The notes beneath the pieces are model-generated. The model saw nothing but the letters and a program-made list of their open reading frames with translations, was not told the DNA's origin and did no database searches. A program made the position numbers and the translations under genes. DNA of 63,804 bases, the filler included, from Candidatus Rokuibacteriota bacterium (GTDB taxonomy: Bacteria > JAUVQV01 > DATDCY01): the NCBI GenBank assembly GCA_031406795.1. It is 5 parts of 5 records of this genome, joined end to end, with 100 filler letters (N's around TTAATTAATTAA, not from the genome) between each part and the next. Parts side by side here need not be neighbours in the genome. Positions count along the whole stretch, not along the records: positions 50,150 to 61,402 come from JANOHV010000204.1; 4 more parts are not named here. One strand, given 5' to 3'. Positions 14,940 to 61,502 of the stretch are shown piece after piece (position 1 is the first letter of the stretch; every line of letters begins with the position of its first letter).

Positions 14940-15039
14940 NNNNNNNNNNNNNNNNNNNNNNNNNNNNNNNNNNNNNNNNNNNNTTAATTAATTAANNNNN
15001 NNNNNNNNNNNNNNNNNNNNNNNNNNNNNNNNNNNNNNN
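14940..15039. other. artificial contig linker
   Basis: N-run with TTAATTAATTAA all-frame stop spacer. Confidence 0.98.
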
Positions 15040-42340: not shown

Positions 42341-42440
42341 NNNNNNNNNNNNNNNNNNNNNNNNNNNNNNNNNNNNNNNNNNNNTTAATTAATTAANNNN
42401 NNNNNNNNNNNNNNNNNNNNNNNNNNNNNNNNNNNNNNNN
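42341..42440. other. artificial contig linker
   Basis: N-run with TTAATTAATTAA. Confidence 0.98.
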
Positions 42441-50049: not shown

Positions 50050-50149
50050 NNNNNNNNNNNNNNNNNNNNNNNNNNNNNNNNNNNNNNNNNNNNTTAATTA
50101 ATTAANNNNNNNNNNNNNNNNNNNNNNNNNNNNNNNNNNNNNNNNNNNN
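50050..50149. other. artificial contig linker
   Basis: N-run with TTAATTAATTAA. Confidence 0.98.
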
Positions 50150-55868: not shown

Positions 55869-56801
55869 ATGGGCTACACGCGAAGCGCCTCGAGCGGCGA
55901 CGCCGCGCGCATCCGCGCCATCCGCCGGGTGCTCGGGGTCATCCTCGCGCTGAACCTCGCCGTTGCCGCGGCAAAGTACTTCTATGGCGTGGCCAGCGGC
56001 TCGATCGCGATGCAGGCCGACGGCTTCCACTCGCTCTTCGACGGCGCCTCGAACGTGATCGGCCTGATCGGCCTCGCCGTGGCGATCCGCCCGCCGGACC
56101 GCGACCACCCGTACGGGCACGCGAAGTACGAAACCTACGCCGCCGCGGTGATCGGCGCGATGCTGCTGCTCGCGGCCTGGAAGGTCGGTTCCGTGGCGCT
56201 GGGGCGCCTGACCGGCGGCGGGGAGCCCCCCCGCGTCGATGCCGGTTCGTTCGCGGTGATGGTCGCGACGCTGGTCGTGAACATCGGCGTTGCCGCCTGG
56301 GAGCGGCGGATCGGGAAGAAACTGCGCAGTGAGCTGCTCATCGCGGACGCCAGCCACACCGGCAGCGACATCCTCGTCAGCTTCGGGGTGCTCGCCGGGC
56401 TGCTCGCGGTGCGGCTCGGCTTTCCGGCGGCGGACCCGCTGCTGGCGCTGCTCGTCGCGGGAGCGATCGTCTGGACGGCCATCCAGGTGTTGCGGCAGGC
56501 CGACCTGAGCCTCTCGGACACCGCCCGCCTGGCGATCCCGGACGTCTGCGTGGCGGCGCTCGCCGTCCCCGGGGTGCTCGGCTGCCACTCGATCCGCACG
56601 CGCGGGACGGCCGCGGACATCCTCGTCGACCTGCACATCCAGGTGGATCCGGCCAGCAGCGTGGCCGAGGGGCATCGCATCGCCGAGGAGGTGGAGCGGG
56701 CGGTCTGTGCGCGCTTCCCCGAGGTCGCCGACGTCCTCGCGCATCTCGAACCGTACGACGAATACCAGGCGCGCAAGACCGCCGCCGAAAACGGCCACTA
56801 G
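55869..56801 (+). CDS. cation diffusion facilitator transporter
   Basis: ADGFHSLFD, HPYGH.KYE, ADASHTGSD, AHLEP. Confidence 0.92.
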   Translation: MGYTRSASSGDAARIRAIRRVLGVILALNLAVAAAKYFYGVASGSIAMQADGFHSLFDGASNVIGLIGLAVAIRPPDRDHPYGHAKYETYAAAVIGAMLLLAAWKVGSVALGRLTGGGEPPRVDAGSFAVMVATLVVNIGVAAWERRIGKKLRSELLIADASHTGSDILVSFGVLAGLLAVRLGFPAADPLLALLVAGAIVWTAIQVLRQADLSLSDTARLAIPDVCVAALAVPGVLGCHSIRTRGTAADILVDLHIQVDPASSVAEGHRIAEEVERAVCARFPEVADVLAHLEPYDEYQARKTAAENGH

Positions 56802-56847
56802 GACTTCCCGCGCTTCAGCAGCTCGAGCGCCCGGCGGCAAGCCCCGG

Positions 56848-57465
56848 CTACTTCTCTTTCTGCAGGGACGCGATCTTGTCTTCGAGCAGCTTCAAGAGCT
56901 GTTCGAAGGTCCTCTTTTCCAGGTGCTTCCGGAACTGCTTGCGGTAGTTCTTCACCGTGTCGATCTCGTCCACGACGTAGTTCACGATGACCCAGGTGTC
57001 GCCGCGGCGCGCCAGTTCGTAGTCGAGCGAAACCTTCTCCTCGTCGAAGAAGGCGAAGCTCCTGATCACGGCGCTCTCGCCCGTGATCTTCTCGCCGTCG
57101 TACTCGAAGCGGCCCGCTCGGGCGCGCCCCATCTTCTTGACCGAGGAGACGCGCAGCAGCCGCGTGAACACCTCCTTGAAGGTCGTGCACTGGCCGACAG
57201 CGAGCTTCGGGCACAGCGGATCGATCGCCGCGCCGGCCAGCGCCTGGTAGTCGGTGATGGGGTCGATCACCGCGAAGACCTCCCGCTCGACCGCGGCGTC
57301 GACCACGCGGTGCTTCCGATAGATCGCGAGCACCTTCTCGTTCGTGCCCTTCACGACCTCGAGCGGCGTCGCGGCCGCCGCCGGCGTGACATAACAGAAG
57401 AGCACGGCGGCGCCGAACAACCGCCGGGCCGTCTTCAGCCTGCTAAAGCGAGACTTTGCCATCAT
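56848..57465 (-). CDS. MlaC/Ttg2D-like periplasmic lipid-binding protein
   Basis: Signal peptide; LDYEL..WVIVNYVVDEIDTVKNYRKQF pattern. Confidence 0.8.
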   Translation of the reverse strand: MMAKSRFSRLKTARRLFGAAVLFCYVTPAAAATPLEVVKGTNEKVLAIYRKHRVVDAAVEREVFAVIDPITDYQALAGAAIDPLCPKLAVGQCTTFKEVFTRLLRVSSVKKMGRARAGRFEYDGEKITGESAVIRSFAFFDEEKVSLDYELARRGDTWVIVNYVVDEIDTVKNYRKQFRKHLEKRTFEQLLKLLEDKIASLQKEK

Positions 57466-58840
57466 GAACCCACCCGAGATAGAGGTTGACATCGCCGAGG
57501 ACGAAACCCAGCCGCGCCAGCGCGACGTTGAGATCGTACTCCCGCTGAGGCTCCTCGATCCGGAGCCGATAATATTTCTCGTAGGCGTCGATCGCGTCGC
57601 CGACTTCCCCGACGCCGGTCTCCCAGTTGTCGAGGACCAGACGCATCCGGCTCTTGGCGGCCTTCAGTGCGGTTCGGGCGGATGCCAGAAGCAGGTGCGT
57701 GCGCTGGGCCTCGCGCAGCGCTTTGCGCACGTCGATGCCGACCTTGGCGCGCAGCACCTGGAGTTGCTCGAGCAGCGCCCCCTGCTCGGCCCGGGCCTCG
57801 CTGACATCGAGGCCCGTGCGGTACCAGTTGGCGTCCCACTTCAGGCCGATTTCGGCGCCGACGCGCGCGTAGTTGAAATCGTCCTTCACCCACGGATTGT
57901 CCTGCTCGTCGCGGTTCCCCGCGTGCGCGATCCCGACGCCCCCGGCGATGAAAAGCAGCGGATTGCGCGACCGCCGCTGCACTTCGACCTTTGCGGCCAG
58001 CGCCCGCGACGCGGCGGTCATCACCCGCACTTCGGGATGAGCCTCGACCGCCCGGGCGACCACCTCCGCGGTGCGGGTCTCCTCCACCGCGACCGCCGGC
58101 GACGGCTCGTGCACGAGCGCGGGCTCCTCTTCGCCGGGTAGGTTCAGCAGCACGCGCAGGGCATCCGCGGTGGCGCGCCGGGCCTCCTGCGCGTCGAGGA
58201 CCAGGCGATCGATGCTGTAGCTGTTCGTCCTGACCTCGAACAGGTCGGCATCATCGACGCCGGAGTTCTCGTCGGCCACGCGCTTTTCCACCTCGCGCTG
58301 CAGCTCGTCGAAGTCCCGGCGCATGTTGCGGGCGATCGCCTCGCTCACCGCAGCGGCGGCGAACGCCCAGTAGGCTCGCGTCGCGTCGAAGGCGACGCTC
58401 GCCCCGGTCAGGGTGCTCCGCGCGCGCTGGGTGGCGAGACCCTCGCGCGCCAGCGCCGAGGTGGCGTCGAGCCGGCCGAAGGTCCACAGCGGCTGCACCA
58501 GCTTGAGTTCGAGTCGGTAGAACGGGCCGAGGCTGTCCAGATCGCTACTGGAGTCCGCCGAGGAGACGACCGTGCCGCGGGCTTCAGGGACCAGGCCGCC
58601 CGCGAGTTCGAGTTTGACTTCCGGCAGGATCCGCAGAGCCGCCGCCTTGCGCACCCCTTCGCCGGCCTTCGCCACCTCGAAGCCGCCGGCCTTGACCAGG
58701 TGGCTCTCGGCGACCGCCCGCTCCACGACTTCGCGGAGACTGAGCCGGGTCGTCCCGGCGGCGGCCGACGAGGCCGCGAGGGCGCCGCCGAGCAGCGCAA
58801 CGCCCGCGAGCGCCGATATGCGTCCGATCATCACAACCAT
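57443..58840 (-). CDS. TolC-family outer membrane protein
   Basis: Signal peptide; LSLREVVERA, LPEV, QPLWTFGR, two OEP-like repeats. Confidence 0.85.
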   Translation of the reverse strand: MVVMIGRISALAGVALLGGALAASSAAAGTTRLSLREVVERAVAESHLVKAGGFEVAKAGEGVRKAAALRILPEVKLELAGGLVPEARGTVVSSADSSSDLDSLGPFYRLELKLVQPLWTFGRLDATSALAREGLATQRARSTLTGASVAFDATRAYWAFAAAAVSEAIARNMRRDFDELQREVEKRVADENSGVDDADLFEVRTNSYSIDRLVLDAQEARRATADALRVLLNLPGEEEPALVHEPSPAVAVEETRTAEVVARAVEAHPEVRVMTAASRALAAKVEVQRRSRNPLLFIAGGVGIAHAGNRDEQDNPWVKDDFNYARVGAEIGLKWDANWYRTGLDVSEARAEQGALLEQLQVLRAKVGIDVRKALREAQRTHLLLASARTALKAAKSRMRLVLDNWETGVGEVGDAIDAYEKYYRLRIEEPQREYDLNVALARLGFVLGDVNLYLGWVHDGKVSL

Positions 58841-59805
58841 CCCTGGTTACGATACCACGCCAGGGTAGCGGCGACACCACTGGCGAGGTCGATCCGGGAG
58901 CAGTAACCCAGCTCGGCGCGGATGCGTCTATCGTCGCAGACCCACCCCGGCTCCAGGCCTTCGCAGGCCTTGTCCCGCCCGAGCAGGGGCGGCCGCCGGC
59001 CGACCCACGCGGCAGCCTCGCCCGCCAGCCCCAGGAGACGAAAGACGAACCCGGGCACGTGCAGGGCTCGCCCCCCGCCGCACGACGCAAGCAGGGCCCG
59101 GCCGAGATCGGCGACGGTGTGCACCGCCCCGTCCGCGGCGTAGTAGATCCGCCCGTCCGCCGCCGGACCCCCGGCGAGCACCAGCGCCTCGACCAGATCG
59201 TGCACGTGCACCAGTGAAATCTGCATGCACCCCCCCCGGACGCTCGGAAAGAAGCCGCGCGACGCCAGCCTGAACAGCGCCAGGGTCGCCCGATCGCCCG
59301 GACCGTAGACCCAGGGCGGACGGACGATGGTCCACCTCGCCCCCGCGGCGGCTCGCCGCAGCAGCTCCTCGCCGCGCAGCTTGCTCTCTGCGTAGCCGTT
59401 CATCGGCGCGGGCGGGTCATCCTCGCGCGCCGGCCGCGCTGCCGTGCGGGGGCCGGCCACGGCGAGGCTGCTGACCAGAACCAGCTTCGGGGGCGATGGG
59501 GAACCCGCAGCAGCAGCCGCAAGCGCGCCCGTGAGCTCGCCGTTGACGGCCATGAACTCGCCGCGGCTGCGAGCGCTGGTCAGGCCGGCGAGATGGTAGA
59601 CGATGTCGGCCCGGCCGGTGATCGCGCGCAGAACCGCAGGGTCGCGCAGATCGCCGTGCACCAGTTCGACGCCGGGCGTCGAGGCCAGCAAGCCGGCTTT
59701 CGCGGCGCCGCGCACCAGGGCGAGCACCCGCGTGCCGTCGGAAGCGAGCCGAAGCGCGAGCGCCCGTCCAATAAACCCGGACGCGCCAGTCACCGCCGCA
59801 ATCAA
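58831..59805 (-). CDS. extended SDR (NAD-dependent epimerase/reductase); candidate 3-keto-sphingolipid reductase
   Basis: TGASGFIG, HLAG, VSSLAV, YAESK, RPPWVYGPGD. Confidence 0.85.
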   Translation of the reverse strand: MIAAVTGASGFIGRALALRLASDGTRVLALVRGAAKAGLLASTPGVELVHGDLRDPAVLRAITGRADIVYHLAGLTSARSRGEFMAVNGELTGALAAAAAGSPSPPKLVLVSSLAVAGPRTAARPAREDDPPAPMNGYAESKLRGEELLRRAAAGARWTIVRPPWVYGPGDRATLALFRLASRGFFPSVRGGCMQISLVHVHDLVEALVLAGGPAADGRIYYAADGAVHTVADLGRALLASCGGGRALHVPGFVFRLLGLAGEAAAWVGRRPPLLGRDKACEGLEPGWVCDDRRIRAELGYCSRIDLASGVAATLAWYRNQGWL

Positions 59806-59852
59806 AACGCACCCATGAGGACAGACTTGATCATTTTCTCTCGGTCAATGCG

Positions 59853-59979
59853 AGCCGGACGCTCAAAAGGGTTCATATGCAAGGCGCGAGACGATCCGGC
59901 GACTGAGGCGGGCTGGTGCCCGCCGCAGGGAGCCGGGAGGAACGCAACGCCGCAGATGGGCCCTTTTCAGCGCACGGCT
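59853..59979 (+). repeat. structured intergenic repeat, copy D
   Basis: Imperfect terminal IR; same core as copies A-C; abuts the TAG of the SPT gene. Confidence 0.8.
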
Positions 59980-61207
59980 AGACGACGTGGAGCGAGCGGC
60001 CGACGCGTTCGATCTTGTCGAGGGCGATGTCGATCTGCTCGGAGGTGTGCGTGGCCATGAGGCTCAACCGGATGATGCAGTCGCCCTCGGGCACGGCCGG
60101 CGCCACGACGGGGTTGACGAAGATCCCCTCCTTGTCGAGCTCGGCGCACATCTTGAACGCGGTCAGGGTTTCGCCGACCCGCACCGGGATGATCGGCGTC
60201 TCCGAAAGGCCCGTGTCGTAGCCGATGGAACGCAGCCCGTCCCGCATCCGCGTGGTGTTCTCCCAGAGTCGGGCAACGCGCTCGGGTTCGCGCTTCATGA
60301 TCCGCAGCGCGGCCCGGACTGCCTCGACGTTCGAGGGCGGCATGCTGGCGCTGAAGATGAGCGATCGCGCCCGGTGCTTGAGATATTCGATGGTGTCCTC
60401 GTCGGCGGCGAGGAACCCCCCGAGCGAGGCCAGGGACTTGCTGAACGTCCCCATGATGAGGTGGACCTTCTTCTCGAGGCCGAAATGATTGACCGTGCCG
60501 GCGCCACACCGGCCCATGACGCCGATGCCGTGGGCGTCGTCGACCATCAGCGAGGCCCGGTAGCGTTCGCAGAGCTTGATGATCTGGGGCAGCGGGGCGA
60601 TGTCGCCCTCCATGCTGTAGACGCCGTCGACGACGACCAGCTTGCCGATCTCCGGGTCCAGCCCGCGCAGCACGCGCTCGAGGTCTTCCATGTCGTTGTG
60701 GATGAACTTGAGCTTTCTGCCGAAACTGAGCCGGCAGGCATCGATGATGCTCGCGTGGTCCATGCGGTCGGTGATGACATACTCGCCGCGGTCGACCATC
60801 GCGGAGATCGCGCCGAGATTGGCCTGGTACCCCGTCGAAAAGAGGATGGCGCGCGGGGACCCCACCAGTTCGGCGAGTTCTTCCTCGAGCATCCGATGGA
60901 TGTCGAGGCTGCCGTTGAGAAAGCGCGACCCCGAACACCCGGTGCCGTACCGCTCCACGGCTTCGATCGCCGCCTTTTTGACCTCGGGGTGGTTCGTCAG
61001 CCCGAGATAGCAGTTCGAGCCGAACATCAGCAGCCGGCGCCCGTCGATGGTGACGGCGGTGTCCTGGTCGGAGGAGATCTCGCGGAAATACAGGTACATC
61101 CCGACGGACTTGAGCATCCGCGACTCGTGGAAGCGGCTGGCCTTGGCTTTGAGGGGCAGAATTTCGGCTGACCCCGCGTGCGACTTCTTGAATTTCGTCT
61201 CGGACAT
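59978..61207 (-). CDS. spt: serine palmitoyltransferase (alpha-oxoamine synthase), Bacteroidota-like type
   Basis: YFREISSDQDT, MFGSNCYLGLTNHP, GSRFLNG, DHASI, VDDAH, MGTFSKSLAS, FVNPVV.PA, SLMATH. Confidence 0.8.
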   Translation of the reverse strand: MSETKFKKSHAGSAEILPLKAKASRFHESRMLKSVGMYLYFREISSDQDTAVTIDGRRLLMFGSNCYLGLTNHPEVKKAAIEAVERYGTGCSGSRFLNGSLDIHRMLEEELAELVGSPRAILFSTGYQANLGAISAMVDRGEYVITDRMDHASIIDACRLSFGRKLKFIHNDMEDLERVLRGLDPEIGKLVVVDGVYSMEGDIAPLPQIIKLCERYRASLMVDDAHGIGVMGRCGAGTVNHFGLEKKVHLIMGTFSKSLASLGGFLAADEDTIEYLKHRARSLIFSASMPPSNVEAVRAALRIMKREPERVARLWENTTRMRDGLRSIGYDTGLSETPIIPVRVGETLTAFKMCAELDKEGIFVNPVVAPAVPEGDCIIRLSLMATHTSEQIDIALDKIERVGRSLHVV

Positions 61208-61216
61208 GGTTTGGGG

Positions 61217-61244
61217 ATTATACTGATTTCAATCGCTAATGCAA
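61217..61244 (-). promoter_or_regulatory. sigma70-type promoter of spt
   Basis: TTGCAT-16 nt-TATAAT, ATG 9 nt downstream, no SD. Confidence 0.65.
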
Positions 61245-61263
61245 GCGCGCCCCGGGCCAAACC

Positions 61264-61402
61264 CACGGCTACGTCAAAGTCCGTCGGTCTCCCGAGGCGG
61301 CTCGGCGAGCAATGGTGGCACCCACGGGCCCAACCGTACGGCTACGGGGCTGATCCGGGTTGCGAGAGGGGTGCAAGAACGCGGCAGCGGGTGCCTGAGG
61401 GC
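61264..61402 (-). mobile_element. second copy of the multicopy element end (probable IS110/IS1111)
   Basis: Identical to 14802-14939; ends the contig. Confidence 0.65.
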
Positions 61403-61502
61403 NNNNNNNNNNNNNNNNNNNNNNNNNNNNNNNNNNNNNNNNNNNNTTAATTAATTAANNNNNNNNNNNNNNNNNNNNNNNNNNNNNNNNNNNNNNNNNN
61501 NN
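61403..61502. other. artificial contig linker
   Basis: N-run with TTAATTAATTAA. Confidence 0.98.

Follow-up and report, generated by a model that had tools for sequence, protein, structure and literature searches.

A conserved TolC-like/MlaC-like gene pair beside serine palmitoyltransferase in a Candidatus Rokuibacteriota genome: a candidate sphingolipid synthesis and trafficking operon

In Caulobacter crescentus, ceramide is synthesized by the Spt–bCerS–CerR pathway (Uchendu et al., 2024, PMC11087976), the genes of which are described as 'often found clustered' (Ding et al., 2024, PMC11334938), and the company of a bCerS-type acyltransferase and a CerR-type reductase serves, in the available part of the latter study, to recognize 'clade B' serine palmitoyltransferases (SPTs). 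CerR is periplasmic in Caulobacter and the order of acylation and reduction is disputed (PMC11087976). Sphingolipid transport to the outer membrane was still called 'a mystery' in a preprint of April 2026, which assigns the inner-membrane step in Caulobacter to LptF2G2(C2) (Uchendu, Isom & Klein, bioRxiv 10.64898/2026.04.12.717747). For the periplasm and the outer membrane, the preprint regards the components as unknown and reports no duplicates in sphingolipid loci; it anticipates that taxa with only one lptFG use other routes and takes an MmpL gene that lies immediately after spt in Myxococcus xanthus as the hint of a second route. Among the papers listed in searches of the open-access literature and bioRxiv, none was found to tie MlaC or TolC to spt or to sphingolipid transport. 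Here, we describe a locus in a stretch of 63,804 nt of DNA (the window) from a Candidatus Rokuibacteriota genome (GCA_031406795.1) in which genes for an SPT, a short-chain dehydrogenase/reductase (SDR), a TolC-like and an MlaC-like protein follow each other, and we consider it moderately probable that this lineage couples sphingolipid synthesis with a trafficking module of RND, MlaC-like and TolC-like proteins devoted to this purpose.

The window joins five contigs of the assembly (G000; 4.1 Mb, 278 contigs, 99.9% complete, 3% contamination) by N...TTAATTAATTAA...N linkers at 14984-14995, 42385-42396, 50094-50105 and 61447-61458, so that genes on either side of a linker are not real neighbours. 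The four-gene locus sits on one contig, C246, of 11,253 nt, where the genes are arranged co-directionally on the minus strand in the 5'→3' order spt, SDR, TolC-like and MlaC-like; Pfam and NCBIfam searches confirm the families of all four proteins:

59978..61207, minus strand: spt, serine palmitoyltransferase (pyridoxal phosphate (PLP)-dependent alpha-oxoamine synthase), 409 aa (NF047600, PDB matches, GTFSKS motif)
58831..59805, minus strand: extended SDR (NAD(P)-dependent epimerase/dehydratase family), 324 aa, TTG start (PF01370)
57443..58840, minus strand: divergent TolC/OEP-family protein, 465 aa (PF02321, AlphaFold2 (AF2), Foldseek)
56848..57492, minus strand: divergent MlaC-family protein, 214 aa, probably 205 aa from 57465 (PF05494, AF2, Foldseek)

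The spt/SDR spacer spans 172 nt (59806-59977), the SDR and TolC-like genes overlap by 10 nt and the TolC-like and MlaC-like genes by 50 nt, or by 23 nt if the shorter MlaC-like start is used; database homologues use this shorter start, which lies nine codons further on (57465) at the second Met cluster and reduces the protein to 205 aa. The overlaps of the last three genes suggest translational coupling. A reading of the DNA that preceded this analysis (the sequence-only reading) had described four co-directional genes with the same overlaps, and the open reading frame (ORF) calls agree.

The TolC-like/MlaC-like pair is a distinct conserved unit. In a phylum sample of six genomes, four of which make up the genus, the order spt–SDR–TolC–MlaC–CDF (cation diffusion facilitator) is kept in all four genus genomes, in one of them (G002) with a contig break inside the SDR gene and spt on another contig. 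Orthologs of the SPT, the TolC-like and the MlaC-like protein are all three present in G002-G005, that is in the three congeners and a genome of the sister family (G005); in G001, which is 77% complete, neither these three nor the MMPL pump type that accompanies the pair in other lineages was found. A metagenome scan with an alignment of the MlaC-like clade retrieved 53 loci, 52 of them in the clade, and a TolC-like gene lies directly upstream of the MlaC-like gene on the same strand in 31 of the 34 loci that offer at least 400 nt of upstream sequence (exceptions L042, L052 and L062), even though TolC-like identity across the paired loci falls to about 30-35%. Some three quarters of the metagenome loci are close relatives of the window, often 1-3 kb long, which add little information; the informative ones are 13 loci below 55% identity, with a GC content of 37% to 65%.

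Since spt precedes the pair here and follows it in L065-L068, the linkage has survived rearrangements. L066 and L067 read TolC→MlaC→SPT→GNAT→SDR, in L067 together with a divergent MMPL gene, L068 reads TolC→MlaC→SPT, and L065 assembles an MMPL gene, two CDP-alcohol phosphatidyltransferases, a fatty acid hydroxylase, TolC, MlaC, SPT and GNAT. The arrangement is SPT→TolC→MlaC in L048, MlaC→SDR in L070, TolC→MlaC→MMPL in L064 and L053, and TolC→MlaC→radical-SAM/SPASM in L056, L057 and L061, where L056 encodes a bCerS-like GNAT 7 kb off, behind bamA. Among the ten loci of at least 7 kb, seven carry SPT, GNAT or SDR, and eight carry one of those or MMPL. While the window's relatives are labelled Rokubacteria or Methylomirabilia, NCBI lists the MlaC-like protein of L067 and its close homologues under names of Acidobacteriota, and the L067 oxoamine synthase again has SPT as its best match. 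The sequence-only reading had proposed that sphingolipid synthesis is coupled to a periplasmic shuttle and a TolC channel, and had named a four-gene linkage conserved in no related genome as one of the outcomes that would speak against it; the linkage is found throughout the genus and, beyond it in another gene order, in L065, L066, L067 and L068, so that the comparative evidence supports a coupling in which cargo and direction of transport are presumed. As a side observation, the radical-SAM/SPASM protein downstream of the pair in low-GC lineages is of about 500 aa (L056 2149-3681, L057 5053-6585, L061 9707-11176).

The MlaC-like protein matches PF05494 with 69.5 bits against a gathering cut-off of 26, and its AF2 model (pLDDT 89) has exclusively MlaC/Ttg2D lipid carriers as its top 12 Foldseek matches (TM-score 0.6-0.8), and the OmpC–MlaA–MlaC complex 8i8x is one of the hits. 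It starts with a signal-like N-terminus and contains two cysteines, C85 and C93, that are invariant in 20 sequences. In a tree with three canonical rows and one row of 25% identity as outgroup, from which about 30 near-identical metagenome rows had been left out, the protein and 20 relatives form a clade (support 100/99) on a long branch from canonical MlaC. The genome possesses two MlaC-family genes only, and a canonical mlaE/F/D/C row, the own MlaC of which scores 154 bits, is located together with mlaA on contig C201. By its separate clade, its pairing with the TolC-like protein and the presence of the canonical row elsewhere, the MlaC-like protein is thus not a canonical Mla component. The ATPase of that canonical row (L015 14389-15618, 409 aa) is itself unusual in that it fuses an ABC_tran domain with a C-terminal GGDEF domain, which hints that cyclic di-GMP signalling may be tied to lipid transport.

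The TolC-like protein matches PF02321 in two stretches with 68.9 bits. Its AF2 model (pLDDT 85.8) combines four beta-strands with long helical hairpins, which is the architecture of a TolC protomer, and retrieves TolC, OprM and CusC by Foldseek at TM-scores of 0.67-0.75; the profile match to TolC in the PDB is distant, with an E-value of only 3e-7, and some of the weakest of the 26 OEP matches on 12 contigs of the genome come from this protein. It carries a hydrophobic, signal-like N-terminal segment and no lipobox cysteine. No member of the membrane-fusion protein (MFP)/HlyD family was found beside the pair among the ORFs scanned in the window and in related loci, a scan that covered part of the ORFs. 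A prediction of the complex of the TolC-like protein (residues 29-465) with the MlaC-like protein (residues 30-205), calculated from an alignment of each, with one TolC-like protomer and without controls, scored 0.30 against a mark of 0.32, a value that speaks neither for nor against contact.

The identity of the oxoamine synthase was judged by the bit scores of models and structures. NF047600 (SerpalmtaseCFB, Bacteroidota-type SPT) is the best NCBIfam model with 580.8 bits, followed by TIGR01825 (412.7), bioF (410.5) and KBL (383.6), which is a margin of more than 165 bits over every other family, and the orthologs in G005 and L048 reach 583.8 and 593.8 bits on the same model. In the PDB, the SPT 3a2b/8guh is matched best with 447.8 bits, ahead of a BioF/KBL-type enzyme (312), other SPTs (270-289), KBL (about 250), BioF (about 240) and the cysteate acyltransferase 28eh (239). 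The translation contains the PLP-lysine motif GTFSKS as well as YFREISSDQDT and FVNPVVAPA, the very blocks from which the sequence-only reading had recognized an SPT rather than BioF or KBL, an assignment that the scores uphold. Besides the spt product, just one oxoamine synthase turned up in the genome. It shows 37% identity, scores best on the bioF model and adjoins BioC-, BioD- and BioA-type genes on C201; as a separate bioF sits in this biotin operon, the spt product is not the biotin enzyme. A paralogous cluster of oxoamine synthase and MlaC, for which the C201 genes had been considered, was rejected, as these represent the biotin operon and the canonical Mla operon. By homology, the spt product is predicted to condense serine and an acyl thioester to 3-ketosphinganine. 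The spt ortholog of one congener (L006 10001-11229 on G003:C1) is split over three reading frames, the breaks falling near codons 134 and 323; topA and the GNAT gene of the same genome are broken in the same manner, and the breaks in spt are likely sequencing frameshifts rather than signs of a pseudogene.

The SDR matches PF01370 with 108 bits and satisfies the Rossmann SDR pattern (GxxGxxG and YxxxK) with GASGFIG and YAESK; no N-terminal signal was seen in its sequence and no NCBIfam model names CerR. Homologues of 35-45% identity adjoin spt in L003, L004, L005, L007, G005, L066 and L067. In all four of the more distant true-SPT loci from reference genomes, namely L003 (Zixibacteria), L004, L005 and L007 (Euphemobacter), spt is flanked by an SDR homologue (35-43% identity) and a GNAT of about 375 aa; in L004, the cluster continues with a PAP2_3 protein and a YegS-type lipid kinase. 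In G005, two contigs join through the GNAT gene, which gives the order spt→GNAT→SDR. The company that characterizes 'clade B' is therewith found as an adjacent SDR here and as adjacent GNAT and SDR in G005, L003, L004, L005 and L007. Since its homologues keep company with spt and GNAT, the SDR can be regarded as a putative reductase of the 3-keto group of ceramide or of the long-chain base, as the sequence-only reading had suggested. 'CerR-like' and 'bCerS-like' refer here to family type and position, not to similarity with the Caulobacter proteins.

An acyltransferase gene is not linked to spt in the genus of the window; G002, G003 and G004 contain one GNAT match each, those of G003 and G004 sharing 42-48% identity with the GNATs that accompany spt in other phyla. 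The earlier remark that no ceramide synthase is visible holds for the operon; elsewhere in the assembly, only a divergent bCerS-like GNAT was found, beside a DUF4388 protein on contig C218 (L010 6770-7987, minus strand). This gene, the only bCerS-like GNAT of the assembly, shows 27-30% identity to the spt-linked type and has no close ortholog among the three congeners, each of which possesses the spt-linked type instead, so that an assembly gap, gene replacement or a foreign contig may account for it. Enzymes for head-group attachment and hydroxylation are possibly represented by a PAP2_3 protein on C277, 32% identical to that of the L004 cluster and adjoining a CDP-alcohol phosphatidyltransferase and a glycosyltransferase, and by a fatty acid hydroxylase on C68.

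With respect to the inner membrane, the MlaC-like gene adjoins an MMPL gene in G005 (L014), L052, L053, L059 and L064, and MMPL genes are located elsewhere in the locus in L062, L065 and L067. The models that fit the linked pumps best are those of the lipid transporters HpnN and BstA, at scores well short of the cut-offs (for HpnN about 215 vs 751.85), and the pair-type pump is also encoded in G004 and G002 (44% and 54% identity). That no inner-membrane transporter is visible, as had been stated, stands for the operon itself; MMPL/RND pumps accompany the pair in other lineages, and this genome has such a pump at another site. As the genome contains a single lptF-lptG pair, the LptF2G2 route of Caulobacter is not duplicated here. 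The MMPL genes on contig C98 of this genome (L020) and in G003 (G003:C1 128000-143000, L078) lie among genes for an inositol-phosphate synthase, an inositol monophosphatase and NTP-transferases, a setting which suggests an inositol-containing envelope lipid, possibly inositol phosphoceramide.

From these components a pathway can be proposed in which Spt would provide 3-ketosphinganine from serine and an acyl thioester, the bCerS-like GNAT, unlinked in this genus, would add the N-acyl chain and the SDR would reduce the 3-keto group with NAD(P)H. The inner-membrane partner would most likely be an HpnN/BstA-like HAE3 RND (MMPL) pump that passes the lipid on to the MlaC-like protein, a hand-over that we infer because MMPL genes are linked to the pair in other lineages. 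The secreted MlaC-fold carrier would hold the lipid in the periplasm and, more speculatively, dock at the TolC-like protein as the outer-membrane station. A ceramide or phosphosphingolipid as cargo and contact between the two proteins of the pair are likewise presumed, and export is assumed as the direction, although an Mla-like retrieval would be possible as well. A more specific proposal, which we put forward tentatively and hold with less confidence than the coupling as such, is an Lpt-independent route to the outer membrane in which the RND pump extracts the sphingolipid, the MlaC-fold chaperone carries it and the TolC-like protein acts as a receptor or insertase instead of an efflux duct.

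Several observations weigh against a coupling of this kind. At the level of synthesis, the spt product, like its two scored orthologs, stays below the curated equivalog cut-off of NF047600, which is 640, and is therefore to be seen as a sister lineage of its seed group rather than as a trusted equivalog, and the spt-type bCerS ortholog of the congeners was not found in this assembly. With regard to the pump, neither this genome nor G003 possesses the MMPL type that adjoins the pair elsewhere; their best matches (24-26% identity) belong to a second MMPL type, represented here by the C98 gene (24%), which is truncated at its 5' end by the edge of the contig. In G005, the MlaC-like gene (45% identity) is located apart from the TolC-like gene (43%): the former adjoins the gene for a 797-aa MMPL pump and is divergent from a fatty acid hydroxylase gene, the latter follows an SBP_bac_5 gene and converges with the SDR gene of the spt cluster, a proximity that for its part favours the coupling. 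Many of the 52 clade loci are closely related and cannot be counted as independent. Loci with no sphingolipid genes in reach of the pair are L064, over 10 kb on each side, and L061 and L057, where the radical-SAM/SPASM gene lies downstream. Outside the phylum, none of the four spt-cluster genomes G006-G009 contains a member of the MlaC-like clade, the sole MlaC match among them, in G007, being canonical; tblastn near spt gave a TolC-like or MlaC-like match in none of the four loci, and Pfam scans of their called ORFs revealed no OEP, MlaC or MMPL. The pair is hence not a general part of bacterial sphingolipid systems. Regarding the G005 arrangement (L019 2171-5461, L018 1891-5707), the TolC-like gene abuts the SBP_bac_5 gene, which encodes a solute-binding protein of importer type, with stop and start adjacent, and Opp-type permease and ATPase genes are divergent from spt.

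The alternative that survives best, although we consider it unlikely, is that the pair, with or without MMPL, moves another envelope lipid such as an inositol- or CDP-alcohol-derived phospholipid, a glycolipid or bulk phospholipid, and that spt is nearby through a clustering of outer-membrane lipid genes. Genes for CDP-alcohol phosphatidyltransferases, inositol-phosphate synthase, NTP-transferases and glycosyltransferases indeed flank the MMPL genes and some of the pairs, the three loci without spt nearby would be accounted for, and the solved MlaC-fold proteins among the Foldseek matches are all phospholipid binders. However, at least three diverged lineages show the linkage to spt–GNAT–SDR again, in different orders, and the pair overlaps the reductase gene here, CDP-alcohol transferases and fatty acid hydroxylases would also be plausible as sphingolipid head-group and hydroxylation enzymes, and a canonical Mla system is already there for phospholipids.

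Less probable still is that the TolC-like protein is an ordinary duct for efflux or type I secretion, its linkage with spt neutral synteny and the MlaC-like protein a spare Mla component. The OEP-family matches of the genome are spread over 12 contigs, congeners could simply have inherited the gene order from a common ancestor, and the operon encodes no periplasmic adaptor (MFP), but a TolC-like gene that keeps its place in front of the MlaC-like gene in 31 of 34 loci down to such low identity, the sharp separation of the MlaC-like clade from canonical MlaC and the fact that no gene for an MFP or an ABC/RND drug pump was found next to the pair among the ORFs scanned argue otherwise. It is very improbable that the oxoamine synthase is BioF, KBL or the cysteate acyltransferase of sulfonolipid synthesis; sequence alone does not reveal the substrate of such an enzyme and the equivalog cut-off of NF047600 is missed, whereas SPT models and structures lead by more than 130 bits, 28eh falls far behind the best SPT structure, bioF has its place in the biotin operon and spt occurs in clusters with GNAT and SDR in relatives. 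A hopanoid reading, in which the SDR and the MlaC-like protein would be of HpnA and HpnM type, was rejected with next to no residual probability, since HpnA, HpnM (the sole NCBIfam match of the MlaC-like protein) and, for the linked MMPLs, HpnN are the top NCBIfam names only at scores far under the cut-offs (74.8 vs 367.65 and 46.1 vs 160.1 bits, besides the HpnN score given above), and no match to squalene-hopene cyclase (PF13243) was found in the 99.9%-complete genome.

The surroundings of the operon are partly obscured by repeats, two features of the intergenic regions being:

59861..59972, no strand assigned: copy of a dispersed repeat, about 110 nt, in the spt/SDR spacer (genome-wide matches)
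61217..61244, minus strand: promoter-like AT-rich stretch upstream of spt (read from the sequence)

The spacer repeat, already pointed out in the sequence-only reading, recurs in the genome as 93 further matches, each 60 nt or longer, which are spread over 68 other contigs and have a median identity of 80%; the copy has imperfect inverted arms at 59853-59880 and 59952-59979 that are 79% complementary; it is intergenic and of the character of miniature inverted-repeat transposable elements or repetitive extragenic palindromes. Its insertion may be recent, as the spt/SDR gap of the G004 ortholog measures only 85 nt. No Rfam family matched in 56600-61400, the repeat included. C246 ends about 190 nt upstream of the spt start, and that nothing else is visible near spt is therefore partly a limit of the assembly: the last 139 nt of the contig (61262-61400) recur identically at the ends of C87, C86, C243 and C101 and inside C31, and with 99% identity at the end of C205; they are a multi-copy repeat at which the assembly broke off, shortly before spt. 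Where a congener offers a contig of 419 kb, the genes upstream of spt are those for fructose-bisphosphate aldolase, transketolase and pyruvate kinase. Downstream of the MlaC-like gene follow a convergent CDF transporter gene and then genes for dienelactone hydrolase and pirin and the 3' part of topA.

The stretch upstream of spt consists of TTGCAT, 16 nt and TATAAT and ends 9 nt before the ATG; its role as a promoter is putative, and a consensus scan passed over it, the -35 hexamer matching at only 3 of 6 positions. Inside the operon, the same kind of scan detected no promoter-like and no convincing terminator-like site. One public metatranscriptome run contained 11% of the sampled words, and a 616-nt contig from it with three differences falls within spt (60556-61171); the other pieces are short, of low identity or located on the repeat, and no contig of that run spans any gene junction of the operon. 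The match documents presence in an RNA library only and is not proof of transcription or co-transcription.

The exit of bacterial sphingolipids to the cell surface is an open question, with LptF2G2, which covers the inner-membrane step, as the only published system according to the available part of the 2026 preprint (bioRxiv 10.64898/2026.04.12.717747). The operon and its relatives name three candidate proteins, namely an RND pump, an MlaC-like carrier and a TolC-like outer-membrane protein, and loci of the Acidobacteriota type may offer culturable carriers for genetics. If the Lpt-independent route holds true, it would fill the periplasmic and outer-membrane positions that the Caulobacter study calls unknown and would serve a second class of sphingolipid producers, including Acidobacteriota and the lineage studied here; the MlaC family would then work with partners besides MlaFEDB and MlaA, and the TolC family would act in lipid trafficking without a membrane-fusion protein.

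Compared with the Spt–bCerS–CerR pathway as far as it is described in the sources cited, the locus equally combines an SPT with an NAD(P)-type reductase, and in relatives (L003-L007, G005, L066 and L067) a GNAT-type acyltransferase is part of the cluster; unlike in Caulobacter, the acyltransferase is unlinked here, with only a divergent copy found in this assembly, and the SDR shows no N-terminal signal, whereas CerR is periplasmic. As with LptF2/LptG2/LptC2 in the part of the Caulobacter account available, transport genes are embedded in a sphingolipid locus, but these code for an MlaC fold, a TolC-family protein and, in relatives, an RND pump instead of an Lpt-type ABC (ATP-binding cassette) transporter. 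The arrangement resembles the Mla system (MlaFEDB–MlaC–MlaA/OmpC) in placing a soluble MlaC-fold carrier between an inner-membrane machine and an outer-membrane protein; it differs in that the carrier belongs to a separate clade, the outer-membrane partner is of the TolC family and not MlaA/porin, and the machine would be an RND pump and not MlaFEDB. HpnN/HpnM for hopanoids and the BstA-type sterol transport systems are HAE3 RND lipid exporters, with which the related loci share an HAE3/MMPL-type RND pump encoded beside a periplasmic lipid-binding protein, while low scores, the absence of a hopanoid cyclase, the TolC-family gene as a fixed member and the sphingolipid neighbours set them apart. 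In cyanobacteria, heterocyst glycolipids are exported by DevBCA–HgdD, an ABC transporter with a membrane-fusion protein and a TolC protein, where a TolC-family protein likewise brings a lipid to the cell surface; in the locus described here, a soluble MlaC-fold protein is found in the place of the membrane-fusion protein. While the synthesis half of the operon is a new member of a known pathway, its trafficking half, the proposed role of which is well motivated, is a new combination of known families.

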